A stretch of DNA of 50,560 nt, from contig JBFFSH010000007.1 in NCBI GenBank assembly GCA_041572575.1, positions 1 through 50,560 of the forward strand, read 5' to 3'. A program made the position numbers and the translations under genes. Below, in pieces: positions 38,750 to 48,911 of this stretch; the first letter of the stretch is position 1; each line of letters opens with the position of its first letter. A model generated the notes under the pieces. The model saw nothing but the letters and a program-made list of their open reading frames with translations. It had not been told where the DNA came from and made no database searches. Source of the DNA: Thermodesulfobacteriota bacterium (GTDB lineage: Bacteria; Desulfobacterota_D; UBA1144; Nemesobacterales; N074bin48).

Positions 38750-39025
38750 ATGGCATACTCTATAATTTATCATCCAGATGTTAAAGATGACATTAAGAAA
38801 TTTGACAGTAAGATAAAACAAAGAGTACAAGATGCAATTGAACAAAGACTCTCTACTGAGCCAGAAAAATATGGAAAACCACTTAGAAAGTCACTAAAAG
38901 GATTCTGGAAGCTAAGAGTTGGAGACATAAGAATTGTGTTTAAGATTCTAAAAAGCGAAATAGTAGTTCTAGCAATCTTGAATAGAAAAGAAGTTTATGA
39001 ACGGATCAACAAACGAATAGAGTAA
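38750..39025 (+). CDS. relE: Type II toxin, RelE/ParE family
   Basis: GKPLRKSLKGFWKLRVGDIRIVF...RKEVY. Confidence 0.9.
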   Translation: MAYSIIYHPDVKDDIKKFDSKIKQRVQDAIEQRLSTEPEKYGKPLRKSLKGFWKLRVGDIRIVFKILKSEIVVLAILNRKEVYERINKRIE

Positions 39026-42164: not shown

Positions 42165-42272
42165 CCCGTATTACTACCCACTAACAGCTAATTATACTTT
42201 CCAGTATTAGTTAAAAATTATACCATCCAACAAATCTAAATTAGAGCTAATTTCCTATTGCCTAATCAATAT

Positions 42273-42288
42273 TTTAGTGCATACTAAA
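42273..42288. promoter_or_regulatory. Putative DtxR/MntR operator 1
   Basis: Palindrome TTTAG-TGCATA-CTAAA overlapping a candidate -10 (CATACT, 42280), with TTGCCT -35 at 42258. Confidence 0.7.
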
Positions 42289-42324
42289 TATTTTATTAGT
42301 CAATACAACAACAAGGAGATTAAA

Positions 42325-43107
42325 ATGAAAAAGTTTATGATAGCACTACCGATTCTATTTATAATCTGTATGCCCAACATTTCATATGGAGTGGGAGGTA
42401 TATCAAACAGCAAGGTTATTGTTCCTAGCGCAGACACAGTACCCAAAAACAGATTTGAGGTTGAACCATTTTTTAGTTTTTCAGCCGTAGATGATGCAGC
42501 CGACTCAAGAAACTATGGGTTTGGCTCAAGGTTTACTTATGGATTTTTGGATAACCTGGAAGCGGGGTTTAATTTAAATTTCCTGGAGATTGAGGATTCT
42601 GACGTTCAGGACAGTAACTCTGATTTTGGAAATATAGAAGCAGGGGTAAAGTACAGGTTAATCGATCAAACAGATAATTTTCCATTTTCACTTGCCTATC
42701 AGGGAGGTGTTACATTTCCCACAGCTGGAGATGATGAGCCCTGGGTGTTTGAGCCTGTAGGGCTTATCCTTACAAGAAACTATACAGATAAATTATCATC
42801 CGATCTGGATGTTGTTTTCAGCTTCGATGAAGATGACAATGTAGCTGTAGTTTCCAATCTGGGCGTGGGATATTTTGTATCTCCCCTACTTCAGCCCGTT
42901 GTAGAGGTTTCATATACATATGAAGATCCTGAAAGCGGCAGCAGCACTGAGGTTTTTAATGGAACTGTGGGGTTTACCTCACCCGTTAATGAGATGCTTA
43001 CGATAATTATGGGTGTAACCTATGATTTATACACAGATAATACTGACGAAGCGTTTACAGTCTCAGCAGCGTTTACAGTCTCAGCAGCGTTTACCTTTTT
43101 ATTCTAG
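42325..43107 (+). CDS. Putative outer-membrane beta-barrel channel
   Basis: AAGGAG RBS before ATG 42325 (preferred over GTG 42277, which lies inside the operator). Signal peptide, FGNIEAGVKY..GGVTFPT, amphipathic strands and C-terminal Phe. Confidence 0.75.
   Translation: MKKFMIALPILFIICMPNISYGVGGISNSKVIVPSADTVPKNRFEVEPFFSFSAVDDAADSRNYGFGSRFTYGFLDNLEAGFNLNFLEIEDSDVQDSNSDFGNIEAGVKYRLIDQTDNFPFSLAYQGGVTFPTAGDDEPWVFEPVGLILTRNYTDKLSSDLDVVFSFDEDDNVAVVSNLGVGYFVSPLLQPVVEVSYTYEDPESGSSTEVFNGTVGFTSPVNEMLTIIMGVTYDLYTDNTDEAFTVSAAFTVSAAFTFLF
43050..43094 (+). repeat. In-frame 18-bp tandem repeat (2.5 copies)
   Basis: AGCGTTTACAGTCTCAGC twice plus AGCGTTTAC, encoding AFTVSA-AFTVSA-AFT. Confidence 0.95.
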
Positions 43108-43143
43108 CAAAAAGCATTTGACAAAGGTCTAAAAAAGATTAAA

Positions 43144-43159
43144 TTTAGACTATACTAAA
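43144..43159. promoter_or_regulatory. Putative DtxR/MntR operator 2
   Basis: Palindrome TTTAG-ACTATA-CTAAA overlapping the TTGACA (43118)-16-TAAATT (43140) promoter of the regulator. Confidence 0.72.
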
Positions 43160-43190
43160 AATATATATTTATTGATCTAAAATAATTATT

Positions 43191-43598
43191 ATGGAAATTA
43201 CACCGACTGTTGAAGATTATCTAAAAACCATTTTCTATTTACAAAAAGATAGTGAGGTGGTTTCTACCTCTTCACTTGCAGAGAGACTCAATATAAAAGA
43301 TGCTTCGGCTACAGCAATGATAAAGAAGCTATCCGAAAACAAATTTATAAACTATGTGTCTCATAAAGGGGTAAATCTAACAGATTCAGGAAAAGAGATC
43401 GCAATTAACATAATAAGAAAGCACAGGATTTTGGAAATATATTTGAATGAAAAACTTAATGTCTCAACGGATAAGGTACACGGCGAAGCTGAAAGGCTCG
43501 AGCATTATGTGTCTGAGGACGTTATGAAAAAAATCGAAAATATAGTAGGCCAGAGGGAATTTGGAATACATGGGGAAAAAATCCCCGTATTAAATTAA
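43191..43598 (+). CDS. mntR: DtxR/MntR-family metal-dependent repressor (short form, no SH3/FeoA domain)
   Basis: VEDYLKTI, wHTH (LAERLNIKDASATAMIKKL), RKHRILE and EAERLEH. Confidence 0.9.
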   Translation: MEITPTVEDYLKTIFYLQKDSEVVSTSSLAERLNIKDASATAMIKKLSENKFINYVSHKGVNLTDSGKEIAINIIRKHRILEIYLNEKLNVSTDKVHGEAERLEHYVSEDVMKKIENIVGQREFGIHGEKIPVLN

Positions 43599-43630
43599 TT
43601 TAAGGAAAATTAAGTACAACTAAAAAAAAG

Positions 43631-45523
43631 ATGAGCACAAAAAAAACATTAATTATAAGCACAGTAGCACTAACAATAGTTACAGCACTTGTTATTAACA
43701 CGAGTGCTCATATTGTTAAAGAACAGCCGTGGCACCCGCTGCCGGCTTCTTATTTAAGATCTGTTTTCTATCTCAATCTAAAACCCATTAACTGGGAACT
43801 TGTAGAAAAAGAGTACAGCTCTCAGGCAGGGTCCGGCTACGATTACAGATCAGTTTATGAAATACTCGACCAGATCACAAAGTTTAGCAACAAAAACTAT
43901 CAGGCAGAAATTAAAGAAGCTATAAGTTCCAAAAACAAAGAAAAAGTTTATCAAATTACAACTAATGCTCTTTCCAATTACATTAGATTTTTACTGTCAA
44001 AAGCTCAGCAGGAGATTGATAATCCTTCAAAGGCTTCTCAGTACATAAGCAATGCAAAAGAGCTATACAGAGCGTTTGAGAAGTTCATTCATAAATATGA
44101 CGAGCAAAACTATGTGATTCTTGGTAAAGCCTGGCTCAATATGAATACGAGCCTGGGATCGAGAGGAGTACTTGGCGCTGCCGAGATAAAACCCGATACA
44201 GCCACATTTACCAAATCTAAGAAGGCTATAGAGGATTACCTTATAGCTAACTATGAAAAGTCAGTAAGAAAGAACGTACTCATACCTGTTCCTCTTAGTG
44301 TTGATAAAAATGATACGAATAAATCAGATTTTGACTGGCTTCCTCCCGGAACCAACTTAAATGATCAGGTTCCACTGCCAAGACTTGTACTTAATTTTGA
44401 AGAACGAGGATTTGATGAAAAAGACCTGTTTTTGGTAGCCTATGGAGATATGCTTTTTGATTCCAAAGAAATTTTCGGAAGCCCTGCAAACGATCTTGGC
44501 ATCGCATGTTCTACGTGTCATAACAGAAGCGACATAAACAAAAGTTTTTTTATTCCCGGAATAAGCCACAAACCGGGCTCAATAGACGTGGACGGGCAAT
44601 TCTTTAACCCTCTCTTTAATGATCACAGGAATGACTCAATAGATATTCCAAGTCTTAGGGGAATAAGATTCACAGCACCCTATGGAAGGGACGGCAGGTT
44701 TGCAAGCCTTAGAGACTTTGTAAGAAATGTAATAGTGAACGAATTTGGAGGGGCCGAGCCTACCCCGCTTATGCTGGATGCGCTTGTTACCTATATGCTC
44801 GAGTTTGACTGGCTTCCATCACAGTATCTAAACCCTGACGGTACTCTCAATGAAAATGCTTCTAAACAGGCCAGAAATGGTGAAAAATTATTTAATAAGA
44901 AGTTTCATTCAATGGGAGGGAGAGCTTGCAGCAGCTGCCACATTCCAAGTTCTAACTTTATAGACGGTCTCAGGCATGATATAGGCTCTGGTAATGCATC
45001 CTCACCAAATGCAAGGGACAGCTTTTTCGATACTCCCACGCTTATAAATATTAAGTACACTGCACCTTATTTTCATGATGGGTCGCTTGAAAACCTTTCA
45101 GATGTGGTGGAGTGGTTTGATAATAAATACAAACTCAAATTAAATGAAAAAGAAAAATCCGATCTCACGGCATATCTTGATGAGGTTGGCACAGGGGAAG
45201 AACCGTTTGAAAATTTTGATTATGAAAACACACAGTTCACCCTGGACTGGTCTGAGCTTTCTACATTTTTAAGCACGCTAAACACACTCATACCTGCTGA
45301 GGATAAATTTCATATTGCCCTGCTCTTAAACACTGTATCAAAAGACCTGAAATTTGATGCAGCGGGGCTTAAAAATCTGGATCAGTCTTCACTTGTGTAT
45401 GAACTTACAGACAAACTGGACAATATATTGGATGCCGTAGAAAAAAATGACTGGCCGACATCTGCATCTTTATGGCTCGAATACAAAGAGCTTGAAAACA
45501 AGTATGGACCTAAATTCAAATAG
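43631..45523 (+). CDS. Exported di-heme cytochrome c, CcP/MauG superfamily, with N- and C-terminal extensions
   Basis: Sec signal; two CxxCH motifs (CSTCH, CSSCH); IPSLRG..TAPYGRDG and TPTLIN..TAPYFHDGS. Confidence 0.88.
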   Translation: MSTKKTLIISTVALTIVTALVINTSAHIVKEQPWHPLPASYLRSVFYLNLKPINWELVEKEYSSQAGSGYDYRSVYEILDQITKFSNKNYQAEIKEAISSKNKEKVYQITTNALSNYIRFLLSKAQQEIDNPSKASQYISNAKELYRAFEKFIHKYDEQNYVILGKAWLNMNTSLGSRGVLGAAEIKPDTATFTKSKKAIEDYLIANYEKSVRKNVLIPVPLSVDKNDTNKSDFDWLPPGTNLNDQVPLPRLVLNFEERGFDEKDLFLVAYGDMLFDSKEIFGSPANDLGIACSTCHNRSDINKSFFIPGISHKPGSIDVDGQFFNPLFNDHRNDSIDIPSLRGIRFTAPYGRDGRFASLRDFVRNVIVNEFGGAEPTPLMLDALVTYMLEFDWLPSQYLNPDGTLNENASKQARNGEKLFNKKFHSMGGRACSSCHIPSSNFIDGLRHDIGSGNASSPNARDSFFDTPTLINIKYTAPYFHDGSLENLSDVVEWFDNKYKLKLNEKEKSDLTAYLDEVGTGEEPFENFDYENTQFTLDWSELSTFLSTLNTLIPAEDKFHIALLLNTVSKDLKFDAAGLKNLDQSSLVYELTDKLDNILDAVEKNDWPTSASLWLEYKELENKYGPKFK

Positions 45524-45536
45524 CAAAGAGGATAAA

Positions 45537-46424
45537 ATGAAAAGACAATTAAAATTAAGTTTAATAATAACATTAGCGGCTGTGATTTTAACAGGGCTAA
45601 ATACTTATGCAGACCTGAAAGAAAACAACAATCAGGATACACTGACCCTTGCATTCATACCACAGGAAAATCCCGAAAAGCTACTTGGTGATATTAAACA
45701 AATTACAAAATATCTTGAAAAAGAAATAGGCGTTACTGTAAAAGGATATGTAACACAGGATCATGCAGCAGCGGTTGAGGCGCTTAGGAGCGGACAGGCC
45801 GATGTTTCATTTATGGGTGGTCTGCCTTATGTCCTTGCTCACAATGAAATAGGTGCAGAGGTATTGCTCTCTGAAGTGTACAGGGGAAGCCCTCTATATA
45901 AAGGAAGAATTTTTGTACGAAGGGACAGCGGGATTAACAGCTTAAAGAATCTCAAGGGTAAAAGCATAGCCTTTGCCGATCCCATATCTGAATCAGGATA
46001 CCTGTATCCGCTAGATCTATTTGTTAAACAGGGATTTTTAGAGCAGGGCGAAGACGCTAATAATTTTTTTAAAACCGTATACTTTGCTGGCGGCTATCAG
46101 CAGGCAATACAGGCTTTGGCAAACGGGCTTGTAGACGCTGCCGGAGTAAGTCAGTTTGCTGACCTTCTTCTCACTGCAGAACAGCTTGCAAAAGTAAAGT
46201 GGATAGCCGAGTCAGAGGACATCCCTTCTCATGTGGTTTGTTCAAGGAAAGGACTTAATCCTGTAATCAAAGAAAATTTCAAAAAAGCGATGCTTAAGTT
46301 AAACAGTTCAGAATATAGCCATTTACTTAAATATGTTTACAGCCCGGATGGATATGTGGAAGCTACACATAAAAATTACGAGCATGTTGAGCAGATGGCA
46401 AAGTTATATGGTTATTTAAAATAA
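45537..46424 (+). CDS. PhnD/PtxB-fold ABC substrate-binding protein with altered ligand residues
   Basis: GAGGA RBS and ATG at 45537, signal peptide; LKGKSIAFADPISESGY, FAGGYQQA and SEDIPSH. Confidence 0.88.
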   Translation: MKRQLKLSLIITLAAVILTGLNTYADLKENNNQDTLTLAFIPQENPEKLLGDIKQITKYLEKEIGVTVKGYVTQDHAAAVEALRSGQADVSFMGGLPYVLAHNEIGAEVLLSEVYRGSPLYKGRIFVRRDSGINSLKNLKGKSIAFADPISESGYLYPLDLFVKQGFLEQGEDANNFFKTVYFAGGYQQAIQALANGLVDAAGVSQFADLLLTAEQLAKVKWIAESEDIPSHVVCSRKGLNPVIKENFKKAMLKLNSSEYSHLLKYVYSPDGYVEATHKNYEHVEQMAKLYGYLK

Positions 46425-46453
46425 CAGGAATCTTAAAAGCGAGGATAAATGAA

Positions 46454-47251
46454 ATGGAAGTTTACATTGGACAGGATAAAAACTCAGTTAGTCGTCTGTA
46501 CTTACAAAAACCTGATGTGGTAATAAGAAAATTAGCCGTCAGATACCCGGGTGAAAACAGCGATGTACTGGACATTGATAATCTCATAATTCCCAAAGCG
46601 CAGACAGTTGGAATAATAGGTTCTAGTGGTGCAGGTAAGACTACATTACTCCGTACTATTGGTGGTTTTATTGAACCCTACTTTGGCTCAGTAGATGTAT
46701 CAGATAATAAAAGGGGCAACATTGGGTTTATATTTCAAAACTTTAACCTAATTGGAAGAAGTACTGTATTTGAAAATGTACTGTTTGGCAGGTTAGGGAA
46801 GACAAACAGAATTAAGAGTTTACTGGGAATGTTCTCTCAAAAAGATAAAGATCTTGCATATGAAGCAATAAAAGAAGTAAATTTATTAGATAAGATAAAT
46901 CAGAGAACCGATACACTAAGTGGAGGAGAAATGCAGAGAACCGCAATTGCAAGGGTGATTACCCAGCAGGCGGGGGTAATACTTGCAGACGAACCTGTGA
47001 GCAATCTAGACCCTGCACTTTCTCATGAAATTTTAGACCTGCTTGTAGAAACAAGCACAAAGCACGGAGCAACTCTTATTATTAATCTTCACCAGCCCGC
47101 ACTTGCAAAAAGATATGTACAAAGAATTATCGGCCTTAGAAAGGGAAGTGTAGTTTTTGATGCCGAGTCGGCAGAGCTTGATAACTCCCATCTTAACTTA
47201 ATTTATGAAACAGAATTCGAATCATCTATTATGTTCGATACTAAAAGTTAA
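46454..47251 (+). CDS. phnC: PhnC-like ABC ATPase
   Basis: GSSGAGKTT, IFQNFNL..TVFENVL.GRL, LSGGEMQR, LADEPVSNLDP and NLHQ. Confidence 0.85.
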   Translation: MEVYIGQDKNSVSRLYLQKPDVVIRKLAVRYPGENSDVLDIDNLIIPKAQTVGIIGSSGAGKTTLLRTIGGFIEPYFGSVDVSDNKRGNIGFIFQNFNLIGRSTVFENVLFGRLGKTNRIKSLLGMFSQKDKDLAYEAIKEVNLLDKINQRTDTLSGGEMQRTAIARVITQQAGVILADEPVSNLDPALSHEILDLLVETSTKHGATLIINLHQPALAKRYVQRIIGLRKGSVVFDAESAELDNSHLNLIYETEFESSIMFDTKS

Positions 47252-47262
47252 ATAACAGTAAT

Positions 47263-48048
47263 GTGAACACAAAAGACTCCCGCTCGATTAAGCCTGCATT
47301 TACCATACAAAGAATTGTAACCATACTTGTACTTGTATTTCTGTTCTTCTGGTCATCGAAAGGCGCTGATTTTCAGACCTCTAAGCTTATTGAAGGTTTG
47401 CCAAGGATGGCCGAATTTTTTTCCCGCATGGTTCCTCCTGATATGAGCGTAGCTCAGACTGTATTCAAATCTACTATCGAGACTATACAGATAGCGCTGT
47501 TTGGAACATTCTTAAGTGCAATAATGTCTTTCTTTGCTGGTATTCTCGCAGCAGAAAATATTACTCCAGCATATATAAACAGACCGGTAAAATGGCTTCT
47601 TGCAATGTTAAGAGGCATACCGGTAATCCTTCTTGCGCTTTTATTTGTAAGCACTGTAGGACTGGGACCTTTTCCAGGGGTACTTGCAATTGCGCTTCAT
47701 TCCACTGGTATGCTCGGCAAATTTTATTCTGAAGCTATGGAAAATGCCAAGATAGGACCTATTGAAGCACTTCAGGCAACAGGGGCTAACTTTGCACAGA
47801 AAATTAGATTTGGTATTTTAACTCAGGTAGCTCCAGATCTTGTACGGGATACTCTATTTAGGTTTGAGCTAAATCTCAGGGAATCTCTTATTCTGGGCCT
47901 TGTAGGTGCAGGAGGTATTGGGTTTTATATATTATTGTATATCCGTTCATTTCAGTACGAAAAAGTGGCTACACTTACACTTGTAGTTCTCATTGCTGTA
48001 GTTATTATAGAGCAAATAAGTATATCTATAAGAAAAAGTTTAAGATAG
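47263..48048 (+). CDS. phnE: PhnE-like ABC permease
   Basis: VGLGPFPGVLAIALHSTGMLGKFYSEAME, RFELNLRES and LGLVGAGGIG. Confidence 0.87.
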   Translation: MNTKDSRSIKPAFTIQRIVTILVLVFLFFWSSKGADFQTSKLIEGLPRMAEFFSRMVPPDMSVAQTVFKSTIETIQIALFGTFLSAIMSFFAGILAAENITPAYINRPVKWLLAMLRGIPVILLALLFVSTVGLGPFPGVLAIALHSTGMLGKFYSEAMENAKIGPIEALQATGANFAQKIRFGILTQVAPDLVRDTLFRFELNLRESLILGLVGAGGIGFYILLYIRSFQYEKVATLTLVVLIAVVIIEQISISIRKSLR

Positions 48049-48140: not shown

Positions 48141-48911
48141 ATGAAAATCAAGATATTGGGTTGTTCTGGTGCAAGAAGCACCAAAAGTAATCCTACATGT
48201 TTTTTAATTGATGATAAGATTTTAATCGATGCTGGATCCGTAACAAATAATCTTGAAGACTCAGCTATCAGAAACATCGATCATCTTCTAATTACTCACT
48301 CACACTTTGATCATATAGCTGACCTGCCTTTTTTACTTGAAAAGCTTTTCTGGATCAAAGAGAGTCCATTTACTATCTACTCATCCTCGGAGAGCTGGAA
48401 TACAATAAAATCACATATACTTAATAACAGCGTATGGCCAAACCTGATAGAAATAGCAAAGAGTAAAAATGAACTATTTAAATGGAAGGAATTTTCAAGC
48501 TTAAATTCATTTAAACTATCAAATTACGAAGTTACACCCGTTCGCGTAAACCATATAGTACCAACAGATGGGTTGATCATTGATAACGGGACGTGCTCCT
48601 TTGCTTTTACGGCAGATACATATAAAACAGACCAATTCTGGGAACAATGCAAAAATCAGCAAAACTTAAAAGCAATTATAGCCGGAGTTAGTTTTCCCAA
48701 CCATATGTATGAAACAGCTGAAATCACAAGACATCTAACCCCAGAATTTTTCCATGATGAAGTTAAAAGACTCGGCCGGGATGATATTAAATATTATATC
48801 TCACATATAAAACCTCTGTTTCAAGATGAAGTTCTTAAAGATATAGAGAAGCTTCCTATACAGGAAAACATTGAAATATTAGAAGATGGAAAACTGATAG
48901 AATTAGACTAG
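48141..48911 (+). CDS. MBL-fold hydrolase, class II cyclic-nucleotide phosphodiesterase-like (cytoplasmic)
   Basis: LGCSG, IDAGS, THSHFDH, LNNSVWPN, VNH, TADT, HLTP and SHIKP; no signal peptide. Confidence 0.82.
   Translation: MKIKILGCSGARSTKSNPTCFLIDDKILIDAGSVTNNLEDSAIRNIDHLLITHSHFDHIADLPFLLEKLFWIKESPFTIYSSSESWNTIKSHILNNSVWPNLIEIAKSKNELFKWKEFSSLNSFKLSNYEVTPVRVNHIVPTDGLIIDNGTCSFAFTADTYKTDQFWEQCKNQQNLKAIIAGVSFPNHMYETAEITRHLTPEFFHDEVKRLGRDDIKYYISHIKPLFQDEVLKDIEKLPIQENIEILEDGKLIELD

Follow-up and report, generated by a model that had tools for sequence, protein, structure and literature searches.

A di-heme protein linked to a PhnCDE-like ABC transporter under MntR-type regulation: a candidate metal importer annotated as phosphonate uptake

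The gene cluster and its four-gene core

The window analyzed here is a stretch of 50,560 nucleotides (nt) from contig JBFFSH010000007.1 (assembly GCA_041572575.1) of a Thermodesulfobacteriota bacterium, below called the host. At 42325-48048 it carries six plus-strand genes, encoding an outer-membrane barrel, a DtxR/MntR-family repressor, a di-heme protein, and the PhnD-like, PhnC-like and PhnE components of a transporter of the ATP-binding cassette (ABC) type (Table 1). The first-pass annotation of this DNA had described six co-directional genes with gaps of 11-83 nt, and the gaps are indeed 83, 32, 13, 29, and 11 nt in order. It had also proposed that the genes encode a metal-regulated importer mis-annotated as a phosphonate uptake system. 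Conserved linkage, manganese-type boxes, the exchange with known manganese importers in one genomic slot, and a remodelled binding-protein pocket speak for this proposal, and we consider metal import very probable; the barrel, however, which had been included in the system, lies outside its core.

Table 1. Genes and regulatory elements of the cluster, with positions in the window
Feature	Position	Strand	Remarks
MntR/DtxR-type operator 1, TTTAG-N6-CTAAA	42273..42288	.	5' of barrel gene; box at the same position in relatives; low matrix score
Predicted outer-membrane beta-barrel, Phenol_MetA_deg/DUF5777-like	42325..43107	+	Accessory member of the MntR operon
Sigma70-like promoter candidate, TTGACA-16-TAAATT	43118..43145	+	Consensus match only, overall number of promoter-like sites being at chance level; operator 2 overlaps the -10 element
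MntR/DtxR-type operator 2	43144..43159	.	5' of mntR; top matrix match of the genome
DtxR/MntR-family repressor, 135 aa	43191..43598	+	Asp9/Glu101; C-terminal domain present in relatives is missing
Exported di-heme protein, 630 aa	43631..45523	+	Signal peptide by eye; core similar to bacterial cytochrome c peroxidase (bCcP) and MauG at ~253-530
PhnD-fold substrate-binding protein	45537..46424	+	Remodelled pocket H76/Y121/S151-E152-S153/Y187/H232
PhnC-like ABC ATPase	46454..47251	+	TIGR02315 237.5 bits, below the cut-off of 266.1
PhnE-type permease	47263..48048	+	TIGR01097 275.7 bits, above the cut-off of 216.7

A scan of one genome per species yielded 361 stretches with a relative of the di-heme protein, and the counts of cassette loci refer to the best 80 of them. 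Among loci with enough flank, a phnD gene lies directly 3' of the di-heme gene in all 73; 67 of 68 also have phnC, and 65 of 66 have phnE. The single exception carries phnC and phnE upstream of the di-heme gene. In a reciprocal check of 151 genomes from one Rhodobacterales family, five were carriers, and all six copies of the binding protein adjoined the six copies of the di-heme protein. By their record titles, the loci belong to Dadabacteria/Thermodesulfobacteriota, Acidobacteriota, Chloroflexota, Spirochaetota, Methylomirabilota, and Alpha- and Gammaproteobacteria, that is, at least six phyla. The cassette occurs in many marine bacteria; among named homologs, the one nearest to the di-heme protein (94% identity) is labelled Ca. 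Dadabacteria. Forty-four plasmid records carry the di-heme gene, including those of cultivated Phaeobacter, Tritonibacter, and Roseovarius strains; Phaeobacter inhibens and Tritonibacter mobilis F1926 are among the plasmid carriers. In one Rhodobacterales locus (L254) and its relatives, the cassette lies within a metal island that recurs among them and has genes for a P1B ATPase, CDF, ZIP, SCO, and PCuAC proteins, along with lspA, lnt, ArsR/MerR regulators, and L,D-transpeptidases.

The core is a four-gene cassette, the di-heme protein with a PhnD/C/E-like ABC importer, because the phnDCE linkage is near-universal while close homologs of the barrel occur in 5 of 66 loci, all from the host's group, and the upstream thioredoxin-like and downstream metallo-beta-lactamase (MBL)-fold genes, ruled out as members, match in none of the 80. 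The MBL-fold gene (48141-48911), resembling class II cAMP phosphodiesterases and scoring weakly as PhnP (36 of 272 bits), is adjacent in a genome of the same genus, but in 0 of 80 other loci. Farther upstream, a 91-aa open reading frame (ORF) at 38750-39025 looks by eye like a RelE/ParE-type toxin.

The barrel is part of the MntR operon, outside the cassette core. In relatives from the host's order, it also precedes mntR-troABCD operons that have no di-heme gene. In Acidobacteriota, a distant barrel of the same Pfam family stands beside the cassette in all four scanned loci and in one more, and boxes precede it in four loci. We place the start of the window's barrel at the ATG following an AAGGAG site; the ORF caller begins at GTG 42277. 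An 18-nt tandem duplication (43051-43086) at the 3' end of the gene places AFTVSA twice ahead of the terminal Phe, and the relatives align to residue 251 of 260 only.

Operators and the slot behind mntR

Matching operators had been claimed in front of the barrel and of mntR, and both are there: the palindrome TTTAG-N6-CTAAA occurs at 42273 and 43144 and nowhere else in the window (0.23 copies expected; two of 100 shuffles reach two). With a matrix built from the boxes of relatives, the mntR box ranks first in the genome (20.1 bits), and the barrel box scores below 12. Genome-wide, five matches to this matrix reach at least 15 bits, with no excess over shuffles (5-11), and the matrix search established no further regulon member of the host. 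These operators are convincing because their position is conserved in relatives, and not by score alone. A third intergenic exact match to the palindrome in the host genome (C6:24652) has a matrix score of 12.0. In a Pho-box scan, the host's own pstS, taken as the positive control, scored no better than the operon. As to expression, runs X1 and X4, labelled as RNA, have flat coverage in 30 of 30 bins and look DNA-like, since this coverage extends over intergenic DNA, and runs X8 and X10, which were found using the window stretch, are sparse.

The cassette of the window thus has both an adjacent MntR and a palindromic operator. Asp9 and Glu101 of the repressor are at positions which we take to be those of manganese selectivity in the DtxR/MntR family. 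The repressor is shorter than its relatives (135 aa vs 221-253 aa), which have an extra C-terminal domain; a second, full-length DtxR-family gene of the host (G000:C3:60786-61457) has no obvious transporter neighbor.

A different, divergent MntR gene is present in 35 alphaproteobacterial loci, and all four proteins tested pass the cut-off for E. coli-type MntR. We searched for boxes in the 300 nt upstream of the di-heme gene, with 75 control regions. As the consensus for E. coli MntR gave only a weak separation between upstream and control regions, the exact core TTAG-N6-CTAA was used instead; it was found in 35 of 35 loci with divergent MntR, in 12 of 33 with no adjacent regulator, in none of the seven co-directional loci, and in 0 of 75 controls. 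In five of the seven co-directional loci, the boxes stand before mntR or the barrel instead. The remaining 21 loci include four with boxes before the barrel and one with a box farther upstream. The Mur consensus (PMC1698941, Table S4) was matched at 13-16 of 16 positions in five others of these 21, which are without mntR, and in 0 of 75 controls, and the cassette box resembles the published box of R. capsulatus mntH (PMC1698941, Table S5). Two MntR lineages and Mur thus appear, from their predicted sites, to converge on the cassette, and this is the main reason why we favor manganese over iron. The linkage of di-heme homologs to phnDCE-like genes, which the first-pass annotation had made a test of its proposal, is conserved (PhnD in 73 of 73 loci), with manganese-type regulators and boxes in addition.

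Other motifs were noticed in some upstream regions. Neither MntR nor Mur boxes were seen upstream in L036, L038, L039, L065, L075, and L092. By eye, TTTGACAnAnCnAAATAT is common to three loci of Spirochaetota, and repeats of the TTCATGT type are common to three alphaproteobacterial loci; these are possibly other operators. In its section on the MntR regulon, PMC1698941 calls the mntR of Mesorhizobium sp. BNC1 enigmatic, since the single box there adjoins only mntR; the puzzle would be explained if a divergent cassette faced this gene.

The genomic slot of the cassette also points to manganese. A DtxR/MntR gene is present in 90 of 91 genomes from the host's order, which is Ca. Dadabacteria-like. 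Directly behind it we found a TroA-type ABC system in 65 genomes (counted from the 73 top-scoring PF01297 matches, ahead of 17 weaker ones), MntH/Nramp in six, the cassette in eight, and no such gene detected in 12. One Nramp of the slot was scanned, and with 609 bits it is above the MntH cut-off of 430. Gene order was read in 20 regions of relatives, where the box-barrel-box-mntR arrangement also heads troABCD operons; a box precedes mntR in 14 of the 16 fetched regions with an mntR, and in one genome (G030) the barrel, mntR, the di-heme gene, phnDCE, and troABCD form one run. Seven of the eight cassette genomes have no TroA-type match. The host genome, which is 96% complete, has neither an Nramp nor a TroA-type protein, but only a ZnuA-type protein, encoded on the contig stretch with its Fur-family gene. 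As the cassette fills the slot where relatives have known manganese importers, it is likely a manganese uptake system.

A similar exchange is seen on plasmids. In five hand-picked records, the place opposite mntR is taken by the cassette, a 91-aa cassette remnant, an Nramp, or the pair of a multicopper oxidase and a ZIP-like transporter. The remnant, recognized by eye as a piece of the di-heme gene, is on plasmid pDSHI03 of Dinoroseobacter shibae (L256:7628-7903), in a stretch that has no other part of the cassette. The oxidase and ZIP-like transporter are on a Sulfitobacter pontiacus plasmid (L257:4486-7441); they are a second such combination under MntR and may be another manganese system with redox coupling.

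The binding-protein pocket and the di-heme partner

The transporter has a PhnD fold and PhnC/PhnE-type partners. The model of the binding protein (predicted local distance difference test, pLDDT, 94.5) matches the PhnD family first, and the closest structures are PtxB, ArrX, AioX, and PhnD. The protein belongs to PF12974, not to the ZnuA/TroA family PF01297, and passes the broad subfamily cut-off TIGR01098, while the equivalog cut-offs for PhnD and PhnC are failed. In PtxB, the ligands are Y55, Y100, S130, T131, S132, H160, and the cap Y208 (Bisson et al., PMC5700983); these align with H76, Y121, S151, E152, S153, Y187, and H232. All seven positions are invariant in 78 rows, near-duplicates included, except for H76 (75 of 78). 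Instead of the STS-H oxyanion motif and a Tyr/Asp cap, the protein has S-E-S, Tyr in place of His, and a His cap. The phosphite contacts are therefore lost, because T131 is replaced by Glu, H160 by Tyr, Y55 by His, and the cap Y208 by His.

This bears on the possibility that the system imports phosphite, phosphonate, or phosphate (the latter for manganese-phosphate complexes), as annotated, and is merely co-regulated by manganese. Such a function would agree with the passed PhnE and TIGR01098 cut-offs, the nearest structures, and the two retained serines of the anion motif. It is contradicted by the removed phosphite contacts and the failed equivalog cut-offs. Moreover, no C-P (carbon-phosphorus) lyase is evident, as had been stated before: no match to PhnJ exists in the host genome, phnX and ptxD being outside that search, and neither C-P lyase nor phosphonatase genes are among the 38 recurring neighbor families scanned. 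A PstS-type system is encoded elsewhere in the genome. We consider import of a phosphorus compound or another oxyanion very unlikely.

The residues in the pocket would rather suit a trivalent metal. Beyond the PhnD family, the first structural match of the model is diferric human transferrin (Z 21.8; root-mean-square deviation 3.6 A over 255 residues; 16% identity), and the Foldseek E-value is 7e-15. The same similarity of fold is probably shown by any PhnD. The Pfam Transferrin family PF00405 does not match the binding protein, with weak profile matches only (E 0.0013 and 0.0056). Judging by their positions in the model relative to the hinge and helices, Y121, Y187, and H232 likely correspond to transferrin Tyr95, Tyr188, and His249; transferrin Asp63, as we take that ligand to be numbered, has no obvious equivalent. 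The ligands in transferrin are two Tyr, one His, and one Asp, and sites of two Tyr, a His, and a carboxylate are the classic ones for Fe(III) (PMC9957567).

In a quickly built tree with 122 rows, made up of 12 of the 46 rows from the cassette and 110 of the 150 representatives, the cassette binding proteins form one clade (SH-aLRT support 99) inside a wider, mostly His-cap group. As a control for this group, 80 of 175 metagenome loci were fetched. Three of the 11 loci with Tyr187 and His232 are among iron-uptake genes, two are too short, and six have no scanned metal gene; none of the 66 loci in which the cap His is absent was matched by the same queries, though many of them are short. The pocket type thus tracks metal uptake, and iron becomes a real rival. 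The three iron-linked loci have a Tyr/Tyr/His-pocket PhnD-fold ABC system with an intact STS motif, in L174 with a TonB receptor, TonB, FeoB, and DtxR, in L179 with DtxR, FTR1, and a cupredoxin, and in L183 with FTR1; these three are candidates for undescribed Fe(III) importers annotated as phosphonate transporters.

A sister cassette with the pocket Y/Y/S/D/H and Glu206 keeps two Tyr, a His, and carboxylates. This pocket is present in three loci, of which a single one includes upstream DNA; there, a di-heme homolog (37% identity) is preceded by a palindrome that looks box-like by eye. Sister types with Y/Y/S/D/H or Y/Y/M/D/H pockets are L176-L178, P0124, P0129, P0130, P0132, and P0134, and L177 has a divergent di-heme gene upstream.

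The cassette could accordingly be an importer of Fe(III), or of both iron and manganese, with Fe(II) being oxidized by the di-heme protein and Fe(III) held in the Tyr/His/Glu pocket in the manner of FbpA and transferrin. The sister binding proteins among iron-uptake genes (L174, L179, and L183) count for this and against manganese, and they make iron the main rival. The ligand set is the classic Fe(III) one, the host has no strong match to FeoB or to FbpA-type proteins, and there can be overlap between Mur boxes and control by Fur (PMC1698941, section 16). On the other hand, the regulators of the cassette are of the MntR type, its boxes match the published MntR/Mur sites of mntH and sitABCD, and it exchanges with MntH in the slot. 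The host also has a separate FTR1 and two TonB receptors, yet no Nramp or TroA-type protein. This FTR1, a protein of 739 aa with two FTR1 matches encoded on another contig (G000:C104:3452-5671), is likely its iron permease. Overall, we regard iron as distinctly unlikely, while manganese import, whatever the role of the di-heme protein, is probable.

The di-heme protein has CxxCH motifs at 293 and 433, which contain all four of its cysteines, in a di-heme peroxidase fold, and so belongs to the bCcP/MauG superfamily. Its core matches BccP (Z 10.9), MbnH (10.6), and MauG (10.2) in fold, with sequence E-values of 1e-11 to 1e-5; a helical domain lies on its N-terminal side, and a four-helix bundle on its C-terminal side. 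The model has low pLDDT around the heme loops, and a Foldseek search with it gave nothing at E <0.001. For the N-terminal domain, barely covered by the fold search, there was no usable Atlas match. The second heme is coordinated by His-Met in canonical enzymes and by His-Tyr in MauG types, and most have an inter-heme Trp (PMC11892367). The protein has neither the His-Met ligation with inter-heme Trp of canonical bCcP nor the His-Tyr ligation of MauG types, and it scores far from TIGR04039 (61.8 of 362.85) and TIGR03791 (38.2 of 443.85). Met274, Met381, or His449 may instead be a ligand of the second heme. Glu371, putatively the peroxidatic acid, is invariant in the 46-row alignment, as are Asp558, His561, Asp572, and Asp576 of the bundle.

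Docking of the di-heme protein on the binding protein is predicted. ESMFold2 gave the complex a score of 0.81, against 0.00 for the best control; 116 of 157 solved pairs reach the mark, as do 2 of 215 mismatched ones, counts that are only approximate with the alignments used here. The runs have at least 95% of contacts in common, and partner pLDDT is at least 87. In the predicted interface, residues 133-186 and 574-590 of the enzyme face the rim of the binding-protein cleft at 74-80, 145-150, and 181-199.

Proposed mechanism and comparison with known systems

From the linkage, the operators, the slot exchange, and the pocket residues, together with the predicted complex, we infer the following route. 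Manganese scarcity would relieve MntR repression, and the cassette would be expressed. In lineages having the barrel, manganese would enter through it. The di-heme protein would oxidize Mn(II) to Mn(III), probably driven by peroxide at heme 1 with the conserved Glu371. Docked on the binding protein, it would hand Mn(III) via the docking domains to the trivalent-type pocket, and the loaded binding protein would deliver it to PhnE/PhnC. With a trivalent route, Zn, Cd, and Cu would not compete, in keeping with the location of the cassette in heavy-metal islands of Rhodobacterales plasmids. As a full mechanism, MntR-repressed import with oxidative loading by the di-heme protein is a tentative proposal.

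Several observations weigh against it. The counts overstate the independence of the loci, since more than half of the 80 are related alphaproteobacterial islands, and 11 of 75 loci are without any recognized box. The repressor of the window passes no NCBIfam cut-off, and two of its Dadabacterial orthologs have Asn at the position of Asp9. The TroA-type proteins in the slot pass no NCBIfam cut-off, their best score being that with the zinc model AztC (228 of 350). Two of the eight cassette genomes also have an Nramp elsewhere, one has TroABCD in tandem, and a Bosea carrier has three Nramps. In the di-heme protein, Phe496 (43 of 46 rows) is at the ligand position of the second heme, being aligned with Tyr at chain position 312 of MbnH, presumably a heme ligand there, and Arg353 (46 of 46) is at what we take, from familiar motifs, to be the position of the inter-heme Trp. 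A strong oxidant cannot be assumed, because these two replace the usual residues. Finally, the confident part of the predicted interface consists of the helical domains and excludes the heme domains.

The di-heme protein of a manganese importer could also be otherwise employed, in oxidative maturation of the binding protein, as by MbnH on MbnP, in reduction of Mn(III)-ligand complexes with release of Mn(II), or as a non-catalytic cap. MauG-type relatives do act on partner proteins (PMC11951088, PMC11892367), a dedicated docking surface is predicted, and the regulatory and slot evidence for manganese serves such a role equally well. However, the His-Tyr ligation and inter-heme Trp of MauG/MbnH are absent, no electron-donor gene recurs in the clusters beside the cassette, and the unmodified pocket already has two Tyr, a His, and a Glu. 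Such a role seems rather unlikely to us.

To return to oxidative loading, the di-heme oxidase and the PhnD-fold protein with its transferrin-type trivalent site might form a bacterial "ceruloplasmin-transferrin" pair for manganese, in which Mn(II) is oxidized and Mn(III) loaded for ABC import; we consider this somewhat doubtful. If true, it would be the first redox-coupled route of manganese uptake, immune to Zn/Cd competition, and a new branch of bCcP/MauG with unusual heme ligation. A subclade of PhnD proteins now counted as phosphonate transporters would then be Fe(III)/Mn(III) binders and possible prokaryotic relatives of the transferrin site, and part of the marine phnDCE counts would not be indicative of phosphonate use. 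The literature searched, with subscription papers mostly outside its coverage, contained no description of the cassette or of a link between PhnD and transferrin.

Among known systems, the cassette shares with PtxABC, PhnCDE, HtxBCDE, and AioX/ArrX the fold (VIA Z 24-28), PhnC/PhnE-type partners, the hinge Tyr, and both serines of the anion motif. It differs from them in four of the seven pocket residues, now His, Glu, Tyr, and His, in its MntR/Mur boxes, in its obligate di-heme partner, and in that the host genome has no PhnJ match. With MntH and TroABCD/MntABCD/SitABCD, it shares the regulator, the operator, and the slot, both in the host's order and on Rhodobacterales plasmids, but the binding protein has the PhnD fold and is not of the ZnuA/TroA family. 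To our knowledge, bacterial manganese importers (Nramp, TroA/SitA-type ABC, P-type, and ZIP) carry Mn(II) without a redox partner.

The binding protein resembles transferrin lobes and FbpA in fold class and in the type of ligands (two Tyr, a His, and a carboxylate), and differs from transferrin in the low identity and the absence of a PF00405 match noted above. The di-heme protein shares two CxxCH motifs and the core fold with the bCcP/MauG superfamily (CcP, MauG, MbnH, BthA, and hydrazine synthase gamma), from which it is set apart by two helical domains that add ~300 residues, by Phe where the Met/Tyr ligand would be, by Arg where the inter-heme Trp would be, and by a predicted ABC binding-protein partner.

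The closest parallels in logic, an exported redox enzyme with a metal-binding protein and a permease, are EfeUOB, Fet3/Ftr1, an uptake pair of oxidase and permease, and the imelysin-DUF1111 (IrpA-type) systems. Di-heme DUF1111 genes adjoin those of imelysins (PMC3143127). Unlike EfeUOB and Fet3/Ftr1, the cassette has an ATP-driven ABC transporter, a PF03150-like enzyme, and manganese-type regulation, with no FTR1 or imelysin; blastp found no match to FTR1 or cupredoxin in the cassette loci. The cassette thus fails the defining tests of PhnCDE/PtxABC, canonical bCcP, MauG-type enzymes, EfeUOB, and MntABC, yet would work like the oxidase-permease systems.

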